Origin: a virus | Strand: one strand, 5' to 3' | Virus record (IMG/VR): IMGVR_UViG_3300046824_000031 | Span: 1,191 to 65,190 of that record | DNA: 64,000 nt | In this document: positions 2,509-26,834 of the stretch, in pieces | How positions within the stretch are numbered: position 1 is the first letter of the stretch | Layout: every line of letters starts with the position of its first letter | The notes under the pieces: generated by a model | What the model was told of the DNA's origin: nothing | What the model saw: the letters and a program-made list of their open reading frames with translations, nothing else | The model's database searches: none | Translations under genes and position numbers: made by a program

Positions 2509-3530
2509 TGTTTGGGCTGGTCGTTTCCCCTCCCTTCTTGCCCTCCCTGAACGAAGTCGAAGCGTTGCGGCCAGCCCTGCTCCGATCCATCCTCTATCAC
2601 GTCGATGACTGCTGGGCTGTCAGCGCCCGCAGCCGGCCCTATCTGGTGACGGTCAACAACGAGTGCGCTGAGGTCAAGTCAGACTGGAGTGGCTGGGATG
2701 ACGCGATCAAGCAGATCGCAAACCTCCCGAACAAACCCTGGGCCGTCGAAGTCGGCAACGAGTTCGACCTGTTCTGGCAGAATAACCCCCACGATGTCCC
2801 CCCAGAGTTTGCCGCCGATCTCATTCAGCGAGCTTCGGTCATACTGCGGCCCCGAGGGATCAAGGTCATTGCCACGTCTGTCGCCGGTGGCCGCTGGCCT
2901 GAGTACCTGGATCGTCTGGCCAGTCTGTGCCGTTCTTCGGTGGACTACTTCAACCTCCACCCCTACGGCCAGCGACCGACAGGCTGGGGAGTACCCGGCT
3001 GGGGGTTTGGAGACCTGAAGGACGCGATCACGACGGCTCACGGGATCTCGGGGCGACCGATCTACTGCACCGAGATCGGGGTCACCGTCGGGATGGCGGG
3101 GGGTGAGCAGCAGCAGGCTGCCTGGCTGACCCAGGCAGCGCAGACCCTCTACGATCTCGGCCCCGAGGTCTGCGAGGGAGCGTCTATCTTTGCCTGGAAG
3201 GATCAGATCGGCGCCCCCTGGGAGCGGGGTCCGAGTGCGTTCGGTCTCCGACGCGATGATGATTCACGGCGCCCTGGCTGGTATGCTTTCCAGGAACTGC
3301 CGTCCCGATCTGGAGAGGAAATGCCGGTGTTCACCGTTGGAGACGGGGTCAAAGCCCAGATGGCGTTCTATGGTGATGAGCCTGGGACGGACGAGATCTA
3401 CCACCCCATCGGAGCGTCTCAGGGCAAGCATCAGTACAGCGAAACGTTTGGTAAGTCTGGCCGCCGGTACGTGTACATCTTCTCGAACGGAAAGACCGTA
3501 ACCTACGCACCCGAGGCACCTGTTGTATGA
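2508..3530 (+). CDS. Clan GH-A (GH5-like) glycoside hydrolase with C-terminal putative cell-wall-binding domain
   Basis: VGNEF acid/base, NLHPYG, YCTEIG nucleophile; C-terminus homologous to that of the next gene. Confidence 0.75.
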   Translation: MFGLVVSPPFLPSLNEVEALRPALLRSILYHVDDCWAVSARSRPYLVTVNNECAEVKSDWSGWDDAIKQIANLPNKPWAVEVGNEFDLFWQNNPHDVPPEFAADLIQRASVILRPRGIKVIATSVAGGRWPEYLDRLASLCRSSVDYFNLHPYGQRPTGWGVPGWGFGDLKDAITTAHGISGRPIYCTEIGVTVGMAGGEQQQAAWLTQAAQTLYDLGPEVCEGASIFAWKDQIGAPWERGPSAFGLRRDDDSRRPGWYAFQELPSRSGEEMPVFTVGDGVKAQMAFYGDEPGTDEIYHPIGASQGKHQYSETFGKSGRRYVYIFSNGKTVTYAPEAPVV

Positions 3531-4375
3531 GTAGCTCAGGCACCGCAGTCCGAGGCGTGGATGTCTCGAATCACCAGGGTTGGATCGACTGGGATCAGGT
3601 TCGCGACGCTGGTTATGTCTTTGGATTCGCCAAGGCCACCGAGGGAACCTATTACAACGATCCGTACTTCCCCCAGAACTGGGGAGAGATGCACCGCGTC
3701 GGTATGCACCGAGGTGCCTATCACTTCGCACGACCGTCCTCAGGATCTCCAGACGCCGAAGCCAGCTTCTTCCTCGCTTCGATCAACCATGTCGGGGGCC
3801 TGGAGCCTGGGGACATGGTCGTTCTGGACATGGAAGACGAGAAGTACCATACGGGTGGACCCTACGCCTCAGCGGGGGCCTGGAGCCTGGGGTTCCTGGA
3901 CTACCTGGAGGAGGTTCTGGGGTTTCCCCCGCTGATCTATACCGGAGCCTGGTACACGTCGTCTCGGGGGATGTCTGAAGAACAGGGCTTAGCCGACTAC
4001 CCGCTCTGGCTCTCGAACTACCGCGCGACGATACCCGCGCCCCCTGAGCCCTGGGAGCGGATCAGCTTCTGGCAACACTCGGACATCGGACAGGTGCCGG
4101 GGATTCAGGGGAACTGCGACCTGAACATCTTCAACGGCGACGCCAGCAGAATTCCCCTTCTCGGCAAACCAGGGCACGTCATCCCCAAACCTCCGGCGAC
4201 GACCTATAATGTCGGGCCGGGGATTCTGGTCGCGATGCAGGAGAATCAGGATATCCCCGCAACCAATGAACACTATCTGACACCTGATTGGTCCGAAGCC
4301 TACGGAGAGTCAGGCTCGAAGTACGTCTACATCGCGTCCCTGAATCGTGTTGAAACGTTCTCCCCCGATGCCTAG
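3527..4375 (+). CDS. Endolysin, GH25 muramidase plus C-terminal binding domain
   Basis: GVDVSNHQG, AKATEG, GAYHF, LDMED, WQHS, DLN motifs of GH25. Confidence 0.92.
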   Translation: MSSSGTAVRGVDVSNHQGWIDWDQVRDAGYVFGFAKATEGTYYNDPYFPQNWGEMHRVGMHRGAYHFARPSSGSPDAEASFFLASINHVGGLEPGDMVVLDMEDEKYHTGGPYASAGAWSLGFLDYLEEVLGFPPLIYTGAWYTSSRGMSEEQGLADYPLWLSNYRATIPAPPEPWERISFWQHSDIGQVPGIQGNCDLNIFNGDASRIPLLGKPGHVIPKPPATTYNVGPGILVAMQENQDIPATNEHYLTPDWSEAYGESGSKYVYIASLNRVETFSPDA

Positions 4376-5963
4376 CCGTGAAAACCCCTTCTACGTACCG
4401 GAGGATGTGGCTGATGAAGTCCTCAAAGACATCGTCGTCCGCGCGGCAGCCAGCAAGAAGCTCAAGCCGAAAGTCTTCAACCCCGCTCTCGGAGCAACCG
4501 CTGAAGAAGCTGAGGAGACTCTCGCTGCCATGCGGGGCAGTGTCGATCTTTACGGTGAATACGTCTTCGGCCATACTGCTGCGAGAGTTCACCAGTTCTG
4601 GAACCGGCAAGTAGATGATGTGATCTTTCGCAGGATCCGACAGAATAAGATCCTGATCCTGGCGCCCCCCAACTCAGCCAAGTCCACCTGGAATAGTTTG
4701 ATCCGGCCCTGCTTCTACCTGGGGAACAGGCCGGATCACAACCTGCTCTTCATGACCTCGTCGGACGACATGGCGAAGACCTTCGGGACCACGGTCCGGA
4801 TGACCTTGCAGGAGTCAGAGCGCCATGCAGAAGTCTTCCCCGATGTGTCTTGCCGTCCTCACCGAGCCAGAGGCTGGTCTGGAGATGGTCTTTACCTTAG
4901 AGGTACGCCTATCGGATCGAAAGATCCAGCGTACAAAGCCGTTGGATTCGGCATGTCCGTCATGGGGGCTAGAGCAAACGGGATTATCCTGGACGATGTA
5001 CTCGACCAAAAACAAGCCGAGTCAGACATCGAGCAAGCGAAAGCCATCAACTATTACACCAAGACTGTGGTCCCTCGTCTGAACACCCAGGACGGCTGGC
5101 TGCTGGCTGTCATGACCCGCTTCGCTGAGGGGGATCTGGGGGGCCACTTTATGAAGCTGGCCGAGCAGTCAGGGGACTGGCTGATCATCCGCACCCCCCT
5201 CGAAGCAGAAGACGGCGACCCGATGGGGAGACTCCCCGGAGAGTCCGTCTGGGTTGACCAGTTCCCCCCTGAGTTCATCGCAGCCACCAAGAAGTCTATG
5301 TCGATAGCTGAGTACGATCTGGTCTATCAGGCCGATCCCCGAGGCATCGGTGGGGACATCTTCACCAACGAGTTCTATTTCAAAGATCTCCCCCCGAACT
5401 TCTGGCAGGAGATCTTCCCCCAGTGCTTCACCGCCCAGGCCGTTGACCTGGCGTTCTCGAAGAACAAGCGGACCTGTTTCACCGTGATCCTGACCTATGC
5501 CGTGGACGCCAACTTCAACATGTATCTGCTCCACGTGGACCGGAATAGGTATCAGGTCCGAGACTCTGAGGAACGCCTCAAGGAACTGATCCGGCTGACG
5601 AAGCCCCTGGTCACGGTCATCGAGACCGAGAATTTTCATGACGCCATGATTCGGTCGATGGTGATTCGGATCATGTCGGAGATCATGTGTGACATTCGCT
5701 TAGACAAACCGGAAGCTGATAAGATTGCACGTGCCCGACTTCCAGCGGGACGGGCGGAACACGGCTTTATGTATGCAGATCGGGAGGCTCCCTGGTATCG
5801 GACGTTCATGTCCGAACTCCTGGGGTTCCCCAACTCGACGTTCAAGGATCAGGTCGATGCCCTGTCCCTGGCGGCACTGACCGTGCAGAAGATGGAGGAG
5901 CAGGCCACCCGCTTGAAGCGGTCGAGTAAACCTGTACAGACGCAGATGGTGATGTCCGCGTAA
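4347..5963 (+). CDS. terL: Terminase large subunit
   Basis: LAPPNSAKST Walker A, IILDD Walker B, YQADP, nuclease AVDLAFS and DQVDALS. Confidence 0.93.
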   Translation: MLKRSPPMPSRENPFYVPEDVADEVLKDIVVRAAASKKLKPKVFNPALGATAEEAEETLAAMRGSVDLYGEYVFGHTAARVHQFWNRQVDDVIFRRIRQNKILILAPPNSAKSTWNSLIRPCFYLGNRPDHNLLFMTSSDDMAKTFGTTVRMTLQESERHAEVFPDVSCRPHRARGWSGDGLYLRGTPIGSKDPAYKAVGFGMSVMGARANGIILDDVLDQKQAESDIEQAKAINYYTKTVVPRLNTQDGWLLAVMTRFAEGDLGGHFMKLAEQSGDWLIIRTPLEAEDGDPMGRLPGESVWVDQFPPEFIAATKKSMSIAEYDLVYQADPRGIGGDIFTNEFYFKDLPPNFWQEIFPQCFTAQAVDLAFSKNKRTCFTVILTYAVDANFNMYLLHVDRNRYQVRDSEERLKELIRLTKPLVTVIETENFHDAMIRSMVIRIMSEIMCDIRLDKPEADKIARARLPAGRAEHGFMYADREAPWYRTFMSELLGFPNSTFKDQVDALSLAALTVQKMEEQATRLKRSSKPVQTQMVMSA

Positions 5964-12262: not shown

Positions 12263-15200
12263 ATGTCATCGTTCTGGAAGAACTTCCCCCCAGGTTGGTT
12301 TGCCTATGACGAGTGGGACGATGTCTCCGGTGAGCTTCATGGGGGTGGCGGTGGGGACGACGACGACGACGACGACGATGACGACGATGATGATGATGAC
12401 GACGATGACGGTGGTGGGGGAGGCGGTGGCGGTGGCGGGGACAACCACGATGAAGGAGATGGCGACGGGGGCGTAGATTTTAGCTGGGGTGGGGACAACA
12501 ACAACGATAACGGTGGTGGGGATAACTTCGACAACGGTGACTCGAACGACTTCGGGGTTAGTAACCGGAGTCGGATGGATGATAACCGTCAGAAGCAACA
12601 GGACGAGGATCGACGCCGACAGCAAGATCAGCAGGAAGCAGAACGCCAGCGTCAGATAAATGAACAGCGCCGCCAGATCGATGAACAACGGCAGCGCATG
12701 GATGAAGAACAGCGCCGTCAGGAAGAGCAGCGTCAGCAAGAAGACCGCGATGGCGACGGTATCCCTGATGCTGGGACGCTGACCTCTCCTGACTCTGGGA
12801 GTCCCGCTGGGGCAGATGTCTCTCAGAATCTCCAGCAGGAGTTCATCGACTACGGAGCGGAGCGCCAGAAGCAGGAGGCGCTCTTTGATCCGAAGAGCCC
12901 TGACTGGCTTCTGACTTCGGGACCAGCCTATAAGCCTCCGGTCACTCTGGTCCGACCTCAGAGCAGCCCAGTCCATCCTGCCCTCCCCGAGCATGTCTTT
13001 GATGTAGCTCCTGACCCGGCTATTCCTCAGGTCGCGGCCACGGCTGCGGCGACGGCGGCTGCTAATGCAGGAGGATCCCCTGAGGACATTGCTCATACCG
13101 CTGAGACGGCAGCCAGGATGGCCTCTGACCGGCAGACCCTGGCCCAGCAGAGTTCTTGGACCCGCGCAGCCTTCAGGAGTACCTATGGCGCGGACGCTGA
13201 TACTCAGTGGCTTCGACAGCATCAAGCTGAACTCGCTCGCAATCGAGATCTCTACGGTTCTTCAGAACCGCGAGCGGGAGCGGCTCCACTGGCGAATACT
13301 CCAGCAGGGACACCAGTGGCTCCTGATCGTCGGATCGGACGGACGCCGCCTCCGCAGCCTGGGCAGACGGCTCAGTATGGCATCAACAGCGGAAGTGCAA
13401 CCGGAGCACCAGTTCAGGCTACCGCCCCTGGCGCCGCTCAAACAGCACGTGCAGCACCGGCTGGGGTAACGGCTCCTGCTGCGACTGGGCCAGCCCCCGC
13501 TCCAGGGGCTGCTGCTCCAGGAGCGCGGACGCCTGGAGGATTCTCTCCAGGCGAGACAACCGCCGATACGATGATCCAGCCCACGGATTATCTGACCGTC
13601 GAAGACACGACCAGTGGGACCAAGAGACTGATCCGTGGGAGCGACTGGCCGAAGTTCAATCAGCCAGTGTCTCCAACGATCCCCAGCCCCTGGCGGCTTA
13701 TAAAAGTTGAGCCAGAGACTTCGCCTCAGAACATGCCGGCTAATCCCTCGGGGACAGAAGATCTGACGCCGATCACACCTATCAAGGCGCCAACGACGCT
13801 TCCAGGAGCCTATACGGGAGCTACTGAGGGTCCATCCCGAGAGCGTGGTACTCTGCCCGGTGCTATACATGCTCCCGAAGGACCATCCCACGAACGAGAT
13901 GCGATGCCTGGGGCCATATACCCTCCCGAGGGACCATCCCACGAACGAGATACGATGCCTGGAGTGGTGCCCCCACCAGAAGGATCCTCCCGAGAACGAG
14001 GTACGCTCCCTGGGGTGGTAGCTCCCTCTGAACCTTCTCCAGAACCTGCGGCTCCTGCCCCTGAGCAGTACTACCCTGATGATGTCCTGACGATTCAGAA
14101 GGGGAACGATCCGCTGACGCAGGAGGATCTCTCTCGGTCGGAGTGGGAGGATCGGATTCGATCCAGGCCCGATTACGCCGATGCCTGGAACGTCATCAAC
14201 GCTCGAACCTCGTCGCAGAGACAGTTCCAGAACCTGCCTCCTTCGTCCTATGAGCCCACCCAGGGATCCTATGAGCCTGCCTCCTGGCATGCTCGAACTG
14301 GAACAGGTGATGATGGATTCTATCGAGGACCGGGAGCGGCGGCGAATGCTTCGACCGATCCAGGATTCCTTCGAGGGCCAGAGGCCCCGCCGGCTCGAAC
14401 CCGACCAGGGTATCCCAATATTGAACTTCTCTCCAGCACCGACACGGCCCTTACTCCAGGCCTGGGCACTGCCGAGCCAGCCTACCGTGACCCGGTCACA
14501 GCGGCTATTAGAACCACGCGGCCCCTCGCTGCGCTGGCATCTCTGGCAGCGACGGAGAAGGGTCCAGGCTATGACGCTAGCCAGGACGCCTTTCACATCG
14601 CGAATGGCATCGCTGCGATGCTACGCGGGGATCGTGACGAGACAGGAAAGCCTATCGTCTGGGCTGAGCCTTATCTGAACGATGTGGCACGACTCGCCTG
14701 GAGCCGTGAAGAGGCTCAGAACGGGCGGGAATCTGATCCCCGTAAAGCTCCGGTTGAGTACGTCGAGAAGTGGAAGGACGCCTTCTACGGGGCGGATGAG
14801 AAAGTCCCGCTGGTCAAAGAGATTCAGCAGGAGATGATCGACAACGCTGCTGCGAGAACCCCACCAGGGAAGCCCTTCCAGTGGCAGGATGCCTACGGCC
14901 CCACGGGGGAGAAGGGGTTGATCTCGCATCAGGTTGATCTGGTGGACTGCGGTCCGAATGCCTTCTCAACTATCTTGCGGTCCCGAGGGTACAACGCCGA
15001 TCCCAGGCAGACATTCAACTTCGCTATTGACCGGGGCTACCATTCGAGTCGCTTGATGGCGAACGGAAAGTACTCAGACGGAGAGTTCTCTGGTCCCGAT
15101 AACATGGTGCGGATGCTCAAGGATGAGGCTGGTCTTCAAGCCTCTTCCGCTCCCATCAGTCCTGATGGGAAGGGCTGGGAGAAGGTTGATTCGGAGCTAG

Positions 15201-16711
15201 CAGCAGGCCGACCGGTAATGCTGTCGTCTCCTGGACACTACTGGGTGATTTCGTCGAAAGATCCGAACACGGGTAAGTACTACGCCGGTGGAACAACGCT
15301 CACGAGTGAGCAGCCCTGGTTGACTCGGGGAGGATTCACGTATAGGGGGGCGGCAAACACCGCCATCTTCACCAATGGGGACGTGGATCCAAACTCGCGC
15401 GCTGTCAAGGCTATGAACCTGAAGCCTCCGCAGATGGGGCAGCCGAACACGCGACCGCTGTTGTCAGGTCAGACGGAGTTCGCCCCGCCAGCCCCGAGCA
15501 GGAATGGCCCGCAGCCGATGAGCGCGCCTGACACGCAGACGGTTGATTGGATCAAATCTCCTGGGGCTCAGAAGATCCCAGAACCGTACCGGCCTATGGT
15601 GGTGTTGGCTGCGACTTCAGAAGGCGTTGATCCCGACTGGGTCACCGCCATCATGATGCAGGAGTCGAAGGGAGATCCGACGGCGATCTCCCCGAAGGGC
15701 GCGTCTGGGCTGATGCAGTTGATCCCGTCAACAGCGAGATCAGTCGGCGTCACTGATCCAATGGATCCCGCCCAGAGCATTCGGGGTGGGGCACGGTACT
15801 TCAAGCAGATGCTCGATCTGCATGGGGGCGATCCGAAGCTGGCGCTTGCAGCCTATAATGCCGGTCCTGGTGCGGTCAAGCAGTACGGCGGTATTCCTCC
15901 CTACGCTGAGACGCAACACTATGTCAACGTAGTTACCGGAAACTATAATCAGATTAAGGCTGAGCGGGGAGAACATCAACGGGGACCAGTGGCCCCTGAC
16001 ATGCTCTACAAGTCTCCAGCAGATAGACTCGGAGAGCGGGTCATGGACTCCTGGAAGGCTGAGACTCCTGAAGGGGATCCCCGAGCGTCTGTGGAGCAGG
16101 GGGATCCAGGATCGTATGGTGGTCCTCGCCAGTTGGCTCCACTTGCGGAACGGGCCATGCAAGAGAACCCCTGGGATCCTGATCCTGCGGCTCAGGAAGC
16201 TAGGCACGCGGGTATGCGAGCCTTTATTGATATGTCTCCAGAGGAACGGAGCGCGATCTACGATGAGTCTATCGACAGAGCACTCACCGAAGAAGGAATT
16301 ACTGATCCGGCTGAGAAGGAGTACTGGAAGCGGAACATGAAATTGGTTTCGACAGGGGATCGCTCCTTCCCTGGGGAGAACCCTGGGCTCAATCCCTTCA
16401 TGATGGCGGGGGAGAATAGAGGGACGCCGCTGTATGCTTCAAGTACTGAGGATAAGTCGGCTCGATCTAATGAATTGAACTCTGCGGCAATGGGGTACTA
16501 TCAGTTCATCATCCATGACCCCGTAGATCCGAAGAAGGATCCGTACGGTCATAAGCGATTCATTCCGCCCGACGCGAACTTCTTTGACCCGGTAACCCAG
16601 CATCGAATGTTCATCCGAGCCATTAGAAATCCTGGGTCAAAACATCATGGCGATCCCGCCAGCGTAGTTCGAGAGAAGCGGGAACGTTCCGATCACACCT
16701 GGGGGCCATAA
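12263..16711 (+). CDS. 1482-aa virion protein: low-complexity N-terminus, C39-like peptidase, lytic transglycosylase (SLT), second lysozyme-like domain
   Basis: DCGPNAFSTIL..GHYWVISSKD (Cys-His-Asp); MQESKGDPTAISPKGASGLMQLIP..YNAGPG (SLT); ENPGLNP..AMGYYQFI. Confidence 0.8.
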   Translation: MSSFWKNFPPGWFAYDEWDDVSGELHGGGGGDDDDDDDDDDDDDDDDDDGGGGGGGGGGDNHDEGDGDGGVDFSWGGDNNNDNGGGDNFDNGDSNDFGVSNRSRMDDNRQKQQDEDRRRQQDQQEAERQRQINEQRRQIDEQRQRMDEEQRRQEEQRQQEDRDGDGIPDAGTLTSPDSGSPAGADVSQNLQQEFIDYGAERQKQEALFDPKSPDWLLTSGPAYKPPVTLVRPQSSPVHPALPEHVFDVAPDPAIPQVAATAAATAAANAGGSPEDIAHTAETAARMASDRQTLAQQSSWTRAAFRSTYGADADTQWLRQHQAELARNRDLYGSSEPRAGAAPLANTPAGTPVAPDRRIGRTPPPQPGQTAQYGINSGSATGAPVQATAPGAAQTARAAPAGVTAPAATGPAPAPGAAAPGARTPGGFSPGETTADTMIQPTDYLTVEDTTSGTKRLIRGSDWPKFNQPVSPTIPSPWRLIKVEPETSPQNMPANPSGTEDLTPITPIKAPTTLPGAYTGATEGPSRERGTLPGAIHAPEGPSHERDAMPGAIYPPEGPSHERDTMPGVVPPPEGSSRERGTLPGVVAPSEPSPEPAAPAPEQYYPDDVLTIQKGNDPLTQEDLSRSEWEDRIRSRPDYADAWNVINARTSSQRQFQNLPPSSYEPTQGSYEPASWHARTGTGDDGFYRGPGAAANASTDPGFLRGPEAPPARTRPGYPNIELLSSTDTALTPGLGTAEPAYRDPVTAAIRTTRPLAALASLAATEKGPGYDASQDAFHIANGIAAMLRGDRDETGKPIVWAEPYLNDVARLAWSREEAQNGRESDPRKAPVEYVEKWKDAFYGADEKVPLVKEIQQEMIDNAAARTPPGKPFQWQDAYGPTGEKGLISHQVDLVDCGPNAFSTILRSRGYNADPRQTFNFAIDRGYHSSRLMANGKYSDGEFSGPDNMVRMLKDEAGLQASSAPISPDGKGWEKVDSELAAGRPVMLSSPGHYWVISSKDPNTGKYYAGGTTLTSEQPWLTRGGFTYRGAANTAIFTNGDVDPNSRAVKAMNLKPPQMGQPNTRPLLSGQTEFAPPAPSRNGPQPMSAPDTQTVDWIKSPGAQKIPEPYRPMVVLAATSEGVDPDWVTAIMMQESKGDPTAISPKGASGLMQLIPSTARSVGVTDPMDPAQSIRGGARYFKQMLDLHGGDPKLALAAYNAGPGAVKQYGGIPPYAETQHYVNVVTGNYNQIKAERGEHQRGPVAPDMLYKSPADRLGERVMDSWKAETPEGDPRASVEQGDPGSYGGPRQLAPLAERAMQENPWDPDPAAQEARHAGMRAFIDMSPEERSAIYDESIDRALTEEGITDPAEKEYWKRNMKLVSTGDRSFPGENPGLNPFMMAGENRGTPLYASSTEDKSARSNELNSAAMGYYQFIIHDPVDPKKDPYGHKRFIPPDANFFDPVTQHRMFIRAIRNPGSKHHGDPASVVREKRERSDHTWGP
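12355..12440 (+). repeat. GAC/GAT (poly-Asp, 18) and GGN (poly-Gly) codon tracts
   Basis: Directly visible; in frame within the 1482-aa gene. Confidence 0.9.
13790..14030 (+). repeat. 51-bp (17-aa) coding tandem repeat, ~4.5 copies
   Basis: EGPSxERxTxPGxxxxx units starting at 13826, 13877, 13928, 13979. Confidence 0.9.
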
Positions 16712-16989: not shown

Positions 16990-19900
16990 GTGCCTAGACT
17001 CCCAGACGTGCGCCTAGATGACTGGTGGAATGACCAGCAGCAGCAGTTCCGTGAGAAGACGGAAGGGTTGATGCCGGCCCTGGAGTTTGAGCTTCAGGGT
17101 CGCATGGACGAAGCCCAGATCCCCCCTGACTACGATGCCCCAGGCGGCATGGACCAGTGGAAGCAGGCCGAGCAGAGCCTGATGGAGCGGGGCCTCGCTG
17201 TCGATCAGAAGGCTGAAGAGGAACGCCGTCGTCAGGAAGAAGAACAACTCCAGGAACAACTCCGGCTAGAGCAGGCGCAGGCACAGCAGAAGCAGCAGGA
17301 CGAAGAGCATCAGCGCGAGATGTCCATGCTGGACCAGGCGAGAAGCCTGGGCATCCCCACCCCTGAAGACGCCTTCAAAGACTTTCAGGAGCCGGGAGAT
17401 CATACCAGCACGACGGGGATTTTCGATCAGGGTTCTTCCCCTGTAGATCAGTTCAACGCTCATGCCGGTTCGATGATGAGCGACGTATTTGGCTCTCCCC
17501 CAGATCCCGATCAGACGCAGCCCCCTCCGAGAGACGACACTAGTTCCTCCGGCATTCTAGATCAGCGGTCGTATTGGACGCCGACTGCCCGAGAGTCCGA
17601 AGGGATGGGGCCTGCCGTAGGTCCAGAGTTCTTGCCTGAGGGGATCAGGCGAGCGGCAGGGGTAGCGACCAGAGCCGTAACGGGTGCGGCTCGTGCTGAA
17701 CCTGCTGGTCCCGAATGGCTTCCTGGGGGTGTTCGGCAGGCGGTCGGGTCGTTCGGCGCGGCCATGGAGCCGCTGCAGGCTGTCGATGATTACCGGAGTG
17801 CGAGACTCGATCCGCAGACCTGGGCATTCGCCCATGACGGTATCGCCAGGACCGAGCTTGATCCGGGCGAGCTTGAACGGTGGAACGACCTTCAGGGATC
17901 GCTCAGTGCTGAAGGCGGGCGCAAGTACGCCTATGTGACGCCTGAGGAACAAGCGGAGATCGATCGCATCACGGGGAAGGTCGATCGCATCTATCAGTCG
18001 ATCAAGGACGATCCCGACAAGCTCAACGATTACGCGAAAGCATCGCCAGCGTACGAAGCTACCCGAATGATAACGGGGACGGTGCTGGGTGGAGCCCTGG
18101 GCAACGTCGTCGGCGGCGCTGCTGGCAGTGCCGCGCGTGGTCTCGGGGCCGGTCATCGTGCGATCAAGGCCGCTGAGTACGCTGGTGATATCGCCGCGCA
18201 GACGGCGTTCGATCCGACCACGCCGGCTATACAGCCGTTGGGCGATCTGGCTATCAAAGGTCTCGGGGCCGGGGTACGCGGCACCCGAGGCGTGCTGGGC
18301 CGTGCAGGCGAAGCGCTCGTTCGCTCCGCTGATGATGTTCCTGCGGATGTACAGCGTCTAGGATCAGGTGCTGTTCCTGAATTGGGGGAATCTATTCCTC
18401 CTCATAAGGGGGGATCGACGTGGTATCACGGCTCACGTTCCGATTTCCCCTACTTTGATCCTGATAAATTTGATCCTGATGGTGACTGGGGTCCAGGAGC
18501 ATATCTCACGAGTGATGCAGATACGGCGGGTATTTTTGCTGCTGATAACATGGTAGATGCTGCCGAAGGCGGCAACGTTCGGAAGATCGGTCTGCCGAAG
18601 AAGATCAATCTCATCAATGGAGATAAGCCGCTGGATGCTACAGAGGCTGGGGAAGCAGCCCTCAAGAATATCAATACGGTTTTCCAGGAAGCGTTTGGAA
18701 AGTCGCCACTCAAAGAATCCTGGAGAAGTTTCCCGTATCCATTCGATATGCAGTACGCGGCATTGGTTAGAGCCGCTGATGGAGATAAAACCTTTGTCAA
18801 TGGAATTTTGTCGGATGCCGGATATGATGGAGTTCGTTGGCGCTATGAAGGAGCGGAAGGTAGATTCAAACCGGCAGTAGTTGTATTCGAACCCTCCCTC
18901 GCGAAGATGCGGAATGAATTCTCCGGTACTGCTGGAGGTTCTGGGGTTATTCCGAATCTCCGTCGGCCGTTGTTCAATGCCGCGCAGGGTGGTGTCATCG
19001 GTGCGGTGAGTGAACCGCTCGAATACGACGAGGAAGGTCGACCGATAAACAGCGCGAGTCGACTTCGGAATATAGGCATCGGGGCCGGGCTGGCGATGCT
19101 GGCAGGCTCCCGAGGCGCTCGTCGGGTCGCCGGTAGAGCCTTGCAGGCGGTCGGATCTGGTGTAGTCCCTGAAGGCGGGGCAGGTAAGGTCGATGTTGAG
19201 GGGATGATTCAGGCTATCAGGCAGATGCGGATAGCTGGGGCTACTGACGACGTGATTCTGGGGGCTGAACGGCATCTCGCAGAGAACACCGATCTCACCC
19301 TCCCTGACGTACAGGCCAGGACACGAGAGATGGTGTCGGCTACCCCCTCTGAACCTCTTCCACGGGAGACGGCTCCTCCTTCCGTGGAGGAGCCTTCCCC
19401 TTCGCCGTATAGCGGGGGGACTCGGGCGTCGCTACCGACTGAGTCCACCCCCTATACGCGGGGGCTGACGACCGAAGAAGCTGAGCAGATGGGGCTGCCT
19501 GGGTTTGAGAACGTTCCGAGAACGGAGACCCCGCAGCCACGACAGGGAATCCGAGGATTTGGGACCGTTCCTCAGGATATGTCTGAAGACACTGAGCGGG
19601 GGATCAGGGGAGTAGCCGGTGAAGCAGCCCGAGAGCGTGCGCCCTATACGCTCCAGCAGCAGGCTGAGGATGTTGGCGCTCTTCTGGATGCTGACCCTGA
19701 GGCCATCAAGCCGATTCTGGGCAGAGCCCTGCTCGCCTCCCCGCAGGCCAGTGCCATTGAGCAGGGTATGCTCCGAGAAAACTCCCGAACCTGGGGAGAT
19801 GCCTGGGCAAAAGCCCGACAGAACTGGGTTGATATCCAGGAAGAGATCGCAGACCTAACCCGAAATGGCCGGGTGATCCCTGATGACGTGGCAGAAGAGG

Positions 19901-22900
19901 CTACGCTGCGGGCGACGACACTAGCAGAGGTCTACAACGGACTCAAGACAGCGGTCAAGGGTCAGAGCTTGTCTGCTGCGGCCCATTCCCGTGGATTGAA
20001 TGCCCAGAAAGGGGCGCGGCTGGGGGCGGCGGCGGTCGCAGAGTCGCGTCGCCTGGATGATATCGGGGATGTGGCGAAGAAGGCCGCGAAATCGATCAAA
20101 GATGGGGTCGTAGACGAGGATGCCCTCAAGGATGTGGGCACGAAGCTCGGAAGCTCCCGTACACGCAAGGCTGTGACGGGTACGTCGAGGATCGGGGAGT
20201 CTCTCGGCCCAGGTACGGGTGAAGGAGGGGGTGGAAAGGGCTCTGGCACCCCGAGAACGCGCTCAGGTGCCCCCTCCGAACCACGAGAAGAGACGCTGAT
20301 CGAGAAACTCGGCCGGTTGATGCGCGAACAGGGCACTCTGGAGAATCGGCTAGAGGAATCGTCACAGGCTACGGGCCGAGGCGCCCGCACCAGCCTCCCC
20401 AATCCGCTCCATGTGACCGATCCTGCTGAGCGAGGGGTCCATGCGGGCCGTCTGGCCGAAGTCAGGGCTGAGATCGAGGACATTCACGGCCAGATGCGGA
20501 CCCATGCCGATGAATTGGCCCAGCAGCGCCTGGCAGCGAAGGCTAACAGGGGGCCGCTGACCCTGGAGGAGACCGAACGGATCGTCAACGAGGCGATTGG
20601 CCGTAAGGCTCAGGCCAGGATGACTCGGGAAGCCACTCGAAAGGCTCGGGGCCTGACAGGGGATGAGGCTGGGATCACGAAGGGTATCAAGGAAGGTATT
20701 GACCGGCACTATAAGACTGCGCAGAGCGACATCCAGAAGGAATTCGAGAAACTCTTCACCGACGAGGCTAAGCGCGAAGCGAAGATGAAGCTCTGGCATG
20801 ACCGGAGGGTCGATGGGATCCTCGCCCAGGAGCGAAACGCCAAGACGCGCAAGGAAGTCAAGAGTCTGTCTGACGTAGCTCAGTCCTGGGCGAAAGACAT
20901 TCGAGACGATGCCAACCCCAAGTTGAATCCAGAGCGACGGGCTCAACTTGATGATCTGAAGAAGGATGTGGATCTCCGTCAGGAACTTGATGATGTTCTG
21001 GTAGAGATGCGCTCGCATTCCACCGTCGGGGAGCGGGTCGCCAATGACCTGGAGGGTCGTCTGGGCGTCAACCTGGATAAAGACGATATCCTACGAACCC
21101 TTCGAGACCAGCGTGCAGCCGGTCGGGAGATCACTGAGGCCAGGATTCGAGCCGTTCGGCAGCAGATCCAGGATGTGCTCGACAATCCTCGTGCCCCTGA
21201 TCGACATACCAGGATCGCAGATCTGTATCAGGATCTGGAAGATATCGGGAACGAGGGGAAGAAGCGGGCGTCAGAAATGCGGCACCGCGCGCACGACGAG
21301 GGCATTCTGAAGTCGGGCCTGGATGCTTCAGGGAAGAGTTCGGATGAACTTGCGAAGATGATGGCGGCGGTAGATCCGAAAGATCCGGCATCGGTCAAGC
21401 CGATCCTGGAACTGATGGCGAGACCAAATGCCTGGGGCGTTCTCCGAGAGATCTCGTTCATCAATATGCTGTCGAACGCCAAGACCCATACGACGAACAT
21501 CTCGTCTACGGCCTACAATGGCGCGCTTCGACTCCTCTTGAGAAATCCTGTTGAGCAGTTCTTCTCCCGAGGAGAACTCTCAGGAAGCCGTGCTGCCTTT
21601 GAAGGACTAACAGCCGGAGCAAAAGAGGGGCTGCGTCTCGCGGGGAAGACGATGACGACAGGCATCAACCCGCGCCGAATCGAATCAGCCGTTGCCACCG
21701 GAGAGTATCAGCACATCGGGCGAGAGCTTCTGCCAGAAGTCTTGGGGAAGGTCAAGCTGGGGAAGCTCGGGCAGGCCATGCACTTCGTCAGCACCCGCCC
21801 CCTCGAAGCGATGGATGCCTTGATGGGCAATATGATGTACTCATCGGCTACCCACCAGTTGGCTCAGCGAAAGGCTGATGATCTGATTAGAGCCGGCGAA
21901 AAGATGATCGACGGGGTGCCGATCCAGAACCGAGAGCAGGCGGCTGATCACATCCTGAAGAATATCTGGGATCATCCCGAGATCATCAAAGACGCTGGCA
22001 AGATTGAGGACTACACCCTGTTTCGATCCCGAGATCCAGGGAAATTTGAGCGACTGCTTCGACAGGCGATGGGACTCAAAGAGCTTGGACCGAATCCGAC
22101 CACCCGTGACGTACTCCAAGCGGCTCTGATCGATATGGTCATGCCGTTCTTCAACGTCCCGTACAACTTCACCAAGCAGGGCCTGGGCAACGTAGCGCAT
22201 GGTCTCGCTGCTGTCCCCCGAGAGTTCACCACGATGGGCGTGGGAGCGAAGATGCTCCGAGGGCAGAACAAAGAAGCCGGAGAATTGGCTGCGAGATCCG
22301 CGCAGGGCGCAGCCATGATGGCGGTCCCGATGTATTTCGCGATGTCTGGTGATCGCTGGGACGACAACATCACCGCTCAGGGACCGACCGACGCTGGGCA
22401 GCGTCGCGTCTGGATGGAGAACCACCGCCCCTATTCCTTCCGGTGGCCTGGTACAGCATCGTGGATTAGCTACGAAGGAACGCCGGTGGCTATTCCCTTC
22501 GCTGCTGTTGCTGGAGGGGCGGAAGCTATCCAGCAACAGCAGGACAGCCCCGACAAAGGCTCTGCGGGGGCGCAGGCTCTGGGTATCGGACTTGGCGCCC
22601 TCAAGGGCGCGGGCCAGGGTGCCCTCTCGCAAACGTTCCTGGAAGGAGCGCAGAGAAATATCGAAGCTCTGACCGGTGATATCAAGGGTCCAAACGCAGG
22701 AGCCCAGGTACTGGCGGGCCTCGCTACTCGCTATGCTCCGTCCCCTGTACCGACAGGGATGCTGAGCTTCCTGGCTCAGATGACAGATTCCGTCGAACGA
22801 GATCCAGGAAGGGCTCGATCTCTGGACGATGTCCTCCCAGTAGCCGCAGATGTTGTCAAATCTAGAATACCGGGACTACGAAACCAACTCCCCGAACGGC

Positions 22901-23307
22901 GAGGAGCCTTTGGCGAGGTGGTTGATAACCCATACTCCGGTGGATGGGCGGCGGTTCCGAAGAGTCTGGTTGGTGCTCGTGCCCCAGGTGAGGGGGATCC
23001 GATTGTCTCCCAGCTAGAGCGGGGAGGGGTCGGAATCCCGAATGCTCCTACGGATCTCCCTATGGGAGAGGGTTCTGTTCCTCTGACTATCAAGGAACAG
23101 CAGATGTATCAGAGGGTCTGGGGGCAGGAGTACTATAAACTCCTCAAAGAGATGGGGGCAGGGAAAGAAACCTTTACCGATGTTGAGCTTACGAATATGA
23201 GAAATGGGGCTCGTAGGATGGCGGCTGGAGCCGTTCTTGATACGCTCACCAACCCAGAGATTGATCGTCGGTGGGTGCGTAAACCTGTGCTTGAGGTGGC
23301 TCCATGA
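16990..23307 (+). CDS. 2105-aa large polyvalent/ejection protein with ADP-ribosyltransferase-like domain
   Basis: WYHGS..WGPGAYLT..GYDGV..VVVF (ART-like); C-half MPFFNVPYN, PYSFRW, KSRIPGL..LPERRGAFGE resembles podovirus large internal proteins. Confidence 0.75.
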   Translation: MPRLPDVRLDDWWNDQQQQFREKTEGLMPALEFELQGRMDEAQIPPDYDAPGGMDQWKQAEQSLMERGLAVDQKAEEERRRQEEEQLQEQLRLEQAQAQQKQQDEEHQREMSMLDQARSLGIPTPEDAFKDFQEPGDHTSTTGIFDQGSSPVDQFNAHAGSMMSDVFGSPPDPDQTQPPPRDDTSSSGILDQRSYWTPTARESEGMGPAVGPEFLPEGIRRAAGVATRAVTGAARAEPAGPEWLPGGVRQAVGSFGAAMEPLQAVDDYRSARLDPQTWAFAHDGIARTELDPGELERWNDLQGSLSAEGGRKYAYVTPEEQAEIDRITGKVDRIYQSIKDDPDKLNDYAKASPAYEATRMITGTVLGGALGNVVGGAAGSAARGLGAGHRAIKAAEYAGDIAAQTAFDPTTPAIQPLGDLAIKGLGAGVRGTRGVLGRAGEALVRSADDVPADVQRLGSGAVPELGESIPPHKGGSTWYHGSRSDFPYFDPDKFDPDGDWGPGAYLTSDADTAGIFAADNMVDAAEGGNVRKIGLPKKINLINGDKPLDATEAGEAALKNINTVFQEAFGKSPLKESWRSFPYPFDMQYAALVRAADGDKTFVNGILSDAGYDGVRWRYEGAEGRFKPAVVVFEPSLAKMRNEFSGTAGGSGVIPNLRRPLFNAAQGGVIGAVSEPLEYDEEGRPINSASRLRNIGIGAGLAMLAGSRGARRVAGRALQAVGSGVVPEGGAGKVDVEGMIQAIRQMRIAGATDDVILGAERHLAENTDLTLPDVQARTREMVSATPSEPLPRETAPPSVEEPSPSPYSGGTRASLPTESTPYTRGLTTEEAEQMGLPGFENVPRTETPQPRQGIRGFGTVPQDMSEDTERGIRGVAGEAARERAPYTLQQQAEDVGALLDADPEAIKPILGRALLASPQASAIEQGMLRENSRTWGDAWAKARQNWVDIQEEIADLTRNGRVIPDDVAEEATLRATTLAEVYNGLKTAVKGQSLSAAAHSRGLNAQKGARLGAAAVAESRRLDDIGDVAKKAAKSIKDGVVDEDALKDVGTKLGSSRTRKAVTGTSRIGESLGPGTGEGGGGKGSGTPRTRSGAPSEPREETLIEKLGRLMREQGTLENRLEESSQATGRGARTSLPNPLHVTDPAERGVHAGRLAEVRAEIEDIHGQMRTHADELAQQRLAAKANRGPLTLEETERIVNEAIGRKAQARMTREATRKARGLTGDEAGITKGIKEGIDRHYKTAQSDIQKEFEKLFTDEAKREAKMKLWHDRRVDGILAQERNAKTRKEVKSLSDVAQSWAKDIRDDANPKLNPERRAQLDDLKKDVDLRQELDDVLVEMRSHSTVGERVANDLEGRLGVNLDKDDILRTLRDQRAAGREITEARIRAVRQQIQDVLDNPRAPDRHTRIADLYQDLEDIGNEGKKRASEMRHRAHDEGILKSGLDASGKSSDELAKMMAAVDPKDPASVKPILELMARPNAWGVLREISFINMLSNAKTHTTNISSTAYNGALRLLLRNPVEQFFSRGELSGSRAAFEGLTAGAKEGLRLAGKTMTTGINPRRIESAVATGEYQHIGRELLPEVLGKVKLGKLGQAMHFVSTRPLEAMDALMGNMMYSSATHQLAQRKADDLIRAGEKMIDGVPIQNREQAADHILKNIWDHPEIIKDAGKIEDYTLFRSRDPGKFERLLRQAMGLKELGPNPTTRDVLQAALIDMVMPFFNVPYNFTKQGLGNVAHGLAAVPREFTTMGVGAKMLRGQNKEAGELAARSAQGAAMMAVPMYFAMSGDRWDDNITAQGPTDAGQRRVWMENHRPYSFRWPGTASWISYEGTPVAIPFAAVAGGAEAIQQQQDSPDKGSAGAQALGIGLGALKGAGQGALSQTFLEGAQRNIEALTGDIKGPNAGAQVLAGLATRYAPSPVPTGMLSFLAQMTDSVERDPGRARSLDDVLPVAADVVKSRIPGLRNQLPERRGAFGEVVDNPYSGGWAAVPKSLVGARAPGEGDPIVSQLERGGVGIPNAPTDLPMGEGSVPLTIKEQQMYQRVWGQEYYKLLKEMGAGKETFTDVELTNMRNGARRMAAGAVLDTLTNPEIDRRWVRKPVLEVAP

Positions 23308-25826: not shown

Positions 25827-26834
25827 ATGGCGTATGGAGCCGTACTCACCCGTGGTAGTGGACCGACCTATTCGGCCACACCGGGTACACATCCCCTTAT
25901 CCCTGAAGATGTCTCCAGGGAGATCATCAAGTCCACCACCCAACAGTCCGCTGTCTTGTCGATGTTCAAGCATCGGACCATGTCTACTGCCCAGCAGCGG
26001 ATGCCGGTGCTGGCAACCAAGCCGACGGCCTACTTCGTCACTGGGGATACCGGTCTCAAGCAGACCACGAGTATTTCCTGGGCGAACAAGTTCCTGGATG
26101 CTGAGGAACTGGCGGTTATCATCCCCGTTCCTGAGAAGCTCCTGGACGACACCGACTACGATATCTGGGGTGAGATCAAGCCCGAGATCATCGAAGCGAT
26201 GGCTATCGCCCTGGACGCAGCGATCCTGTTCGGCTTCAACAAGCCGGCATCGTGGCCTGCGAGCATCGTGGCAGCGGCTATCGCGGCTGGCAACACCGTC
26301 ACTCAGGGCACCGGCATCGATGTTGCGGATGACATCAACAACGTGATGGCGGCTGTCGAGCAGGACGGCTACGACGTGAACGGGTTCTTCATCAGGAACT
26401 CGATCAAGGCTGAGCTTCGCGGCCTGCGAGACGCCAACAACGGGTTCATCTTCCAGTCCCCCGCCGACACGGGCATGTCAAACTCGGTCTACAAGGGGAC
26501 CATCTACGGCGAGAAGGCCGTTGCTTCGATCTCGGGGATCTTCGAGGCTGAGGATGCGGGGACGTATGGGCGTACCGTCAACTCGGTCAAGCTGATCGCC
26601 GGTGACTGGACGCAGGGGCTGATTGGGATCCGGCAGGATCTTACCTGGAAGATGCTGGATCAGGCGGTCATCACCGACAACAACGGTCAGATCGTCTTCA
26701 ACCTGCCGCAGCAGGACATGGTGGCGATGCGGGTGGTCGCTAGGTACGCGTTCCAAGTGCCAAACCCAATCAATCGCATGAACCTGACCGAGGCCACCCG
26801 GTATCCGTTCGCCGTGCTGCGAGACGCTGCCTAA
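25827..26834 (+). CDS. Major capsid protein (HK97 fold)
   Basis: LIPEDVSREII, EELAVIIPVPEKLLDD, ALDAAILFG, QQDMVAMRVVARY. Confidence 0.93.
   Translation: MAYGAVLTRGSGPTYSATPGTHPLIPEDVSREIIKSTTQQSAVLSMFKHRTMSTAQQRMPVLATKPTAYFVTGDTGLKQTTSISWANKFLDAEELAVIIPVPEKLLDDTDYDIWGEIKPEIIEAMAIALDAAILFGFNKPASWPASIVAAAIAAGNTVTQGTGIDVADDINNVMAAVEQDGYDVNGFFIRNSIKAELRGLRDANNGFIFQSPADTGMSNSVYKGTIYGEKAVASISGIFEAEDAGTYGRTVNSVKLIAGDWTQGLIGIRQDLTWKMLDQAVITDNNGQIVFNLPQQDMVAMRVVARYAFQVPNPINRMNLTEATRYPFAVLRDAA

Follow-up and report, generated by a model that had tools for sequence, protein, structure and literature searches.

The window analysed here, a stretch of 64,000 nucleotides (nt) corresponding to bases 1191-65190 of a 67,172-base IMG/VR virus record (IMGVR_UViG_3300046824_000031), carries among its head genes an open reading frame (ORF) for a giant putative virion protein, P0001, in which a small ADP-ribosyltransferase (ART) module is embedded (Table 1). 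The database gene call for the same gene (P0002) starts at a GTG codon at 17008, six codons downstream, and its product of 2099 amino acids (aa) is 100% identical to P0001. An original prediction, made from the sequence alone, had described at this place an ART-like insert of low guanine plus cytosine (GC) content, bracketed by GSG-containing motifs, within a giant ejection protein. All the peptides on which it was based (WYHGS, FDPDK, WGPGAYLT, GYDGV, and VVVF) were found between GSGAVPE (nt 18361) and GSGVIP (nt 18937), the third GSG site was located at nt 19153, and the module was delimited to residues 458-652 of P0001. Considering all the results presented below, we are fairly confident that this module is a compact ART domain of the ART-PolyVal family, with a His-Tyr-Asp (H-Y-D) active site, housed in a polyvalent internal virion protein of an uncultured ~67-kb phage, and that its core was probably imported or replaced.

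Family, fold and active site of the embedded domain

PF18760, the Pfam family ART-PolyVal, was the sole meaningful Pfam match of the module (27.6-28.4 bits, E 3e-6 to 6e-6), besides a weak match to DUF3990. The same family was matched by 22 of the 36 homologues that could be aligned to the whole module (alignment A1, ~30% shared identity), with a best E of 1.9e-18, and phmmer linked the module to its relatives with E values of 1e-17 to 1e-10. When 1.84 billion representatives were searched exhaustively with HMMER, 111 representative relatives were obtained, nearly all of them within proteins of 1000-4600 aa. The AlphaFold model built from A1, with a predicted local distance difference test (pLDDT) score of 87.5 and a predicted template modelling (pTM) score of 0.83, exhibited an ART fold, and nearly all of its top structural matches were ART-fold proteins. 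The best match was a chain of the pre-ejectosome of cyanophage A4 (9k3a_B; Z 11.1 over 163 residues in VIA-align, Foldseek E 1.9e-5), followed by the catalytic domain of diphtheria toxin (Z 8.4, 127 residues), ParT (Z 8.0), MbcT (7.7), RES (7.3), tankyrase (7.2), exotoxin A (6.6), and AcrIF11 (6.5). When the A1 profile was compared with PDB sequences, weak matches to PARP12 and PARP16 were obtained only (E 0.1-0.4), the PARP12 alignment spanning the YHGT...GxGxY stretch. By homology through its relatives, modelled fold and catalytic triad, the module is assigned to ART-PolyVal, in agreement with the ART-like nature first proposed for it. Three giant relatives (P0019, P0023, and P0029) were found to contain two tandem ART-PolyVal copies per protein.

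ART-PolyVal is defined by a His in strand 1, a Tyr in strand 2, and an Asp in strand 5 (Iyer et al. 2017, PMC5512222). In the alignment and in the model, these positions are occupied by H480, Y505, and D613 of P0001 (Table 1); A1 further shows conservation of the GPG turn and of the Thr and Arg in YLT and NVR, respectively. The original prediction had seen no clear catalytic Glu and had suggested that the chemistry might be atypical. That residue was missed because ART-PolyVal uses H-Y-D, without Glu; as judged from alignment and model, the active site is intact and normal for the family, so no unusual chemistry is called for. The domain is probably enzymatically active, as far as conservation and modelled geometry indicate. 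No tested member of the H-Y-D family was found in the literature searched, and activity and target therefore remain predictions.

Composition, orthologues and joints of the module

The module proved to be the lowest-GC stretch of 585 nt in the window (minimum 0.496 at 18346, z -3.3). The counts given in the original prediction were exact for the lines sampled (26 of 60 bases at 18421-18480, 18661-18720, and 18781-18840; 43 of 60 at 18241-18300), but the 43% derived from them did not hold for the module as a whole, whose mean GC over 18361-18945 is 50.1%, as compared with 60.2% for the rest of the gene. The dip was located mainly at synonymous sites. Indeed, the GC content at third codon positions (GC3) was 0.426 in the module versus 0.633 elsewhere in the gene, and a value of 0.641 would be expected from its own amino acids and the codon usage of the phage (z -6.5). 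Out of 650 windows of 195 codons taken from 54 ORFs, the seven with the lowest GC3 all overlapped the module, and GC3 was normal on both sides, both in the 200 codons before it (z +0.5) and in the 84 codons after it (z -1.2). The compositional anomaly is real, sharp-edged, and synonymous, and the sliding GC and codon analyses upheld what had been proposed from a few lines of sequence.

Orthologues of P0001 were found to differ at this site, with an uneven GC content, as had also been anticipated: ten clusters lack the module, three have a compact form of it, and one has a longer form. The variable block in which it lies is shared by the window, P0004, and P0009, and is missing in ten orthologue clusters (listed as P0003, P0005-P0013), which keep aa 1-190 and ~740-2105; its absence was confirmed in L009, an ART-less orthologue on a fully syntenic 66-kb contig. 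BLASTP segment mapping against P0004 and P0009 revealed that the giant gene is a mosaic of three parts. The N-terminal 190 aa are common to all orthologues, aa 190-740 are common only to P0004 and P0009, and the C-terminal 1350 aa are nearest to the ART-less group (~41%), with only 29% identity to P0009 and no match in P0004. P0004 carries an ART of the same compact type (52-56% identity), whereas P0009, encoded on contig L001, carries a different, longer core of ~280 aa. The relationships of the core are incongruent with those of its flanks: P0009 is the closer relative over aa 331-457 (84-94% identity versus 61-70% for P0004) and aa 650-730 (80% versus 68%), whereas P0004 is the closer one over the core, aa 465-645 (52% versus 38% for P0009). 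At the DNA level, homology between the window and L001 stops at 18381, where GSGAVPE ends, and restarts at 18931, where GGSGVIP begins. A third compact ART of the same type (49% identity, all three motifs) was identified at L008:2858-5644, behind the same N-terminal domain and without the region of aa 190-454, which indicates that ART and tail travel as a unit, separately from the remainder of the variable block. We judge it moderately probable that recombination brought in the ART core, or replaced it, from a relative of lower GC, with joints at LGSGxVPE and GGSGxIP, the protein-level motifs that flank this module throughout its subfamily.

The three GSG motifs frame the ART core and a conserved tail of ~66 aa (Table 1). 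In alignment A2, the tail residues N-A-A-Q-G, G-A, and S-E were invariant, and a search with aa 645-735 detected the tail only in ART-bearing proteins; the possibility that residues 645-735 form an independent module placed beside other cargo was discarded, as they were seen next to ARTs only. The order LGSGxVPE, ART, GGSGxIP, ~66-aa tail, LGSGxVPE was found in about 10 of 91 representative ART-bearing proteins unrelated to P0001, that is, with a similarity to P0001 limited to the module and its immediate flanks, or at most with a weak C-terminal match. As their sequence conservation indicates, the motifs belong to the cassette, because they are conserved at the protein level and accompany the ART in unrelated proteins. 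Recombination at DNA repeats was rejected, since no direct repeat longer than 14-20 nt was detected, and none at the motif positions. The exchange slot defined by repeats in the original prediction is not supported; the DNA homology joints at 18381 and 18931 do coincide with GSG motifs.

In the ART-less orthologues P0003 and P0007, the sequence SGVLGPE aligns to aa 715-735 of P0001 (~19130-19195), at the position of motif 3, and could be an empty form of the site. The motifs may serve as a hinge, for cleavage, or for docking. A general site for a virion protease was discarded, as within this phage the motif is confined to P0001 apart from one loose linker copy at 3913. This copy (GGGSGVSPAD), located in the linker of a putative lysin (ORF 3527-4375), is probably due to chance. 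Text searches of the paper describing the family (PMC5512222) found such bracketing motifs unmentioned and the word "linker" absent. A portable effector cassette could be envisaged, in which the motifs would be functional sites, for example for cleavage, that free the ART together with its tail from the giant carrier, either inside the capsid or once in the host, and also serve as in-frame exchange joints for ART variants, SGVLGPE being the empty docking site; we give this scheme little credence.

The carrier protein and its neighbourhood

The head block comprises, in this order, the gene for the large terminase (4347-5963), that for a 1482-aa protein with an SLT lytic transglycosylase domain, the P0001 gene, two unassigned genes, and the gene for the major capsid protein. 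Like phage-type polyvalent proteins (PMC5512222), P0001 is very large (2105 aa) and is encoded among phage late/virion genes, with the terminase region on one side and the major capsid gene on the other. The AlphaFold model of its C-terminal 726 residues (pLDDT 80.7) gave matches in BFVD with E values of 4e-15 to 1e-9 and a TM of ~0.6, which corresponded to models bearing the names of internal virion proteins from Synechococcus and Pelagibacter podophages or of polyvalent proteins with LPD, ART-PolyVal, or MuF-C domains. Relatives sharing this C-terminal domain carry NlpC/P60, glucosaminidase, DdrB-ParB, or LPD38 domains. Because of these matches and of the domains of its relatives, P0001 is classed, by homology and modelled structure, with the phage-type polyvalent or internal virion proteins, and its C-terminal domain looks like a widespread, structurally unsolved carrier domain. 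From the position in the head block, the 9k3a_B match of the ART, and the BFVD matches of the C-terminal domain we infer that P0001 is an ejected virion protein, in line with the giant ejection protein of the original prediction.

The ART is the sole enzymatic domain recognised in P0001 by Pfam. A zincin-like metallopeptidase was looked for in P0001, and neither an HExxH motif nor a peptidase Pfam match was found; a processing peptidase is frequent in phage-type polyvalent proteins, but not a requirement (PMC5512222). No transmembrane segment was predicted in P0001 at the usual threshold, the best candidate being aa 360-378 (Kyte-Doolittle 1.3). P0001 had no match among PDB sequences by phmmer, and neither the whole protein nor aa 455-735 had a match in 50,697 phage records by tblastn. 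An antisense ORF overlapping the module (18433-19275, 280 aa) had no family match and was treated as spurious.

The capsid protein is 44% identical to Arthrobacter phage capsids, and its 707 matches were mostly from Mycobacterium and Microbacterium phages. Because of this resemblance to the capsids of actinobacterial phages, the host is probably an actinobacterium. The next-lowest GC3 windows after those of the ART module (0.48-0.50) were located at ~12890-13570, inside the SLT gene, which may contain another imported module.

Table 1. Location of the genes, domains, motifs, and predicted catalytic residues considered in the text (positions in the window)
Feature	Position (nt)	Strand	Basis or remark
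1482-aa protein with SLT lytic transglycosylase domain	12263-16711		Adjoins P0001 gene
Giant virion protein gene, P0001	16990..23307	+	2105 aa; ORF list and translation
Variable block, aa ~258-736	17761..19197	+	In window, P0004, and P0009; BLASTP segment map, alignment A5
Motif 1, LGSGAVPE, aa 457-464	18358..18381	+	Left edge of ART core; last bases of DNA homology to L001
ART-PolyVal core, aa 478-636	18421..18897	+	Pfam PF18760, alignment A1, AlphaFold model
Predicted catalytic H480	18427-18429	+	H19 of A1, invariant; end of strand 1 (E15-21) in model
Predicted catalytic Y505	18502-18504	+	Y44 of A1, invariant; within strand 2 (E43-46) in model
Predicted catalytic D613	18826-18828	+	D152 of A1, found in 90% or more of the rows; one residue ahead of strand 5 (E153-159) in model
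Motif 2, GGSGVIP, aa 648-654	18931..18951	+	End of ART module; DNA homology to L001 restarts
Conserved ~66-aa tail (NAAQGG... and glycine-rich stretch)	18952..19149	+	After ART in motif-bearing subfamily
Motif 3, VGSGVVPE, aa 721-728	19150..19173	+	GSGVVPE from nt 19153
Helical C-terminal domain, aa 1380-2105	21127..23304	+	Common to all orthologues and many ART-bearing giant proteins
Major capsid protein gene	25827-26834		

Predicted action, related systems and alternative explanations

Building on the established family, fold, triad, and gene context, and on the presence, absence, and variants of the module among orthologues, we infer a course of packaging, ejection, and host modification. 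The giant protein would be made late and packed in the head next to the SLT-bearing 1482-aa protein, and would leave the head with the DNA. Once in the cell, and ahead of all phage gene expression, its ART domain would draw on host NAD+ and ADP-ribosylate a molecule of the host, a modification that may help takeover or counter a defence.

Among the protein-modifying domains found in polyvalent proteins, ART-PolyVal is ranked as the most frequent by its describers (PMC5512222, PMC9503650). The window's domain resembles the other members of this Tox-ART-HYD2-related family (PF18760; PMC5512222) in its homology at the family level, detected with hidden Markov models (HMMs), in its ART fold with H-Y-D on strands 1, 2, and 5, and in being embedded in a giant phage protein encoded among head genes. 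It differs from most of them in its compactness, in the absence of two inserts, in the ~66-aa tail, and in the LGSGxVPE/GGSGxIP brackets.

The A4 chain 9k3a_B, which from its residue numbering is probably gp27, is also a very large protein and was located inside the podophage capsid by cryo-electron microscopy (PMC12002296). No sequence similarity to it was detected, the C-terminal domain of P0001 has no PDB match, and A4 infects a Gram-negative cyanobacterium, whereas the host of the window's phage is probably an actinobacterium. The domain of 9k3a chain B that matches the ART model lies at residues ~932-1600. The A4 paper (PMC12002296) makes no mention of an ART-like domain, nor does the term "ADP-ribosyl" appear in it, and the ART-like domain of the solved A4 pre-ejectosome may have gone unreported so far.

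The precedent of T4 Alt, invoked in the original prediction, is valid as an analogy, since the ART of P0001, like Alt, would be a passenger of the head that enters the cell along with the DNA and acts on host proteins. It does not extend to the enzyme itself: Alt is a separate protein of the Arg-Ser-Glu (R-S-E; Alt/VIP2) clade, placed apart from ART-PolyVal (PMC5512222), whereas the ART of P0001 is fused in a giant protein and its conserved residues are H, Y, and D instead of the R-S-E active site. With the ARTs of the diphtheria toxin/PARP type (H-Y-E) and with AcrIF11, the module shares the fold and equivalent His and Tyr residues (Z 6.5-8.4). It differs from these proteins in having Asp instead of Glu before strand 5, in an identity of only 12-16%, and in the absence of receptor-binding and translocation domains.

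Several observations weigh against the reading of an active, imported ART within an ejected protein, and they bear on different parts of it. The homology to PF18760 was recovered with an E of 3e-6 and through 22 of 36 homologues, as the HMM comparison proposed in the original prediction would have it, but the module's own score of 28.4 bits falls below the gathering cut-off of the family (31.2 bits). Compared with most relatives, the module is compact (~180 aa), without the ~60-aa helical insert after strand 2 and the strand 5-6 hairpin. The C-terminal model gave nothing significant against PDB in Foldseek, with helical membrane transporters only (E >0.06), so whole-protein homology to A4 gp27 or T7 gp16 could not be demonstrated. 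Its pared-down form and its score below the Pfam cut-off would be in keeping with a domain that retains the ART fold but serves the internal core as a structural or inactive part, with no enzymatic role in the host, and its best match, 9k3a_B (Z 11.1), is a structural pre-ejectosome chain for which no enzymatic role was reported by its authors (PMC12002296). However, 36 sequences with an identity of only ~30% have kept H480, Y505, and D613 together with the GPG turn, the YLT Thr, and the NVR Arg, which would be unexpected in a purely structural domain, and we consider this explanation very improbable. The domain could also be active as an NAD+ glycohydrolase or phosphorylase, or as a modifier of nucleic acids, and not as a protein ADP-ribosyltransferase. 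Its structural neighbours do include the NAD+ phosphorylase MbcT, RES NADases, and ARTs of toxin-antitoxin systems, and the papers found hold no tested H-Y-D member to set against this. A drain of NAD+ at the start of infection would nevertheless harm the phage, and the describers of the family predict modification of macromolecules (PMC5512222, PMC9503650); such an activity seems to us improbable.

With regard to the import of the core, the alternative is that it diverged in place, through fast evolution in an arms race and deletions, next to constrained flanks, its low GC3 having another cause. In the ART-core tree, the window and P0004 formed a long branch outside the motif-bearing clade that holds P0009, but in the approximately unbiased (AU) test a grouping of the window's core with those of P0009 and P0020 was not rejected (p 0.555) and the constrained tree was slightly better. 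The tree cannot therefore separate a swap from fast divergence in place, and it was not used as evidence for a swap. The flank is ~94% identical to that of L001 in protein and ~76% in DNA, and since synonymous sites are saturated, this identity reflects constraint and is no proof of recency. A low GC3 is likewise seen in the ART core of L001 (z -5.8) and, less markedly, in that of L008 (z -2.5), so that the ART core is the low-GC3 part in three related phages; repeated import or a constraint on codon choice could account for this. The GSG motifs are conserved as protein, with differing codons, and go along with the ART in giant proteins of no other relation. A scan of viral contigs with the ART core found no relative, and a metagenome scan gave one further compact ART, that of L008, which at 49% identity is not a donor. 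The recency ascribed to the swap in the original prediction is not supported, given the indecisive core tree, the lack of a donor in both scans, and an identity of only 49-56% to the compact ARTs of two other phages. On the other hand, a GC3 drop of 0.21 that begins and ends sharply at the domain borders is not produced by selection at the protein level, flank and core identities are incongruent among the three orthologues, the more distant ART-bearing relatives (on contigs of 66-73% GC) show little or no GC3 dip, and the module occurs in otherwise unrelated protein contexts, such as that of L008. Divergence in place is thus regarded as rather unlikely, and import or replacement of the core remains the preferred explanation.

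In the current view, phages commonly open their attack on the host with injected ADP-ribosyltransferases. To our knowledge, almost none of them has been tested outside T4 Alt. The locus described here offers a small (~180 aa), confidently modelled, predicted H-Y-D enzyme with clear catalytic residues to mutate, and natural controls in the form of syntenic phages that lack the module or carry a different version, which makes it a workable case for the question of the target in hosts that are probably actinobacteria. It does not change the current picture, as the strategy was predicted in 2017 and the locus is a further example of ART-PolyVal. Its modest interest resides in the motif-bounded joints, the sharp anomaly in codon usage, and the natural variants with and without the module, the joints providing a concrete, testable picture of how domains may be shuffled in giant virion proteins.

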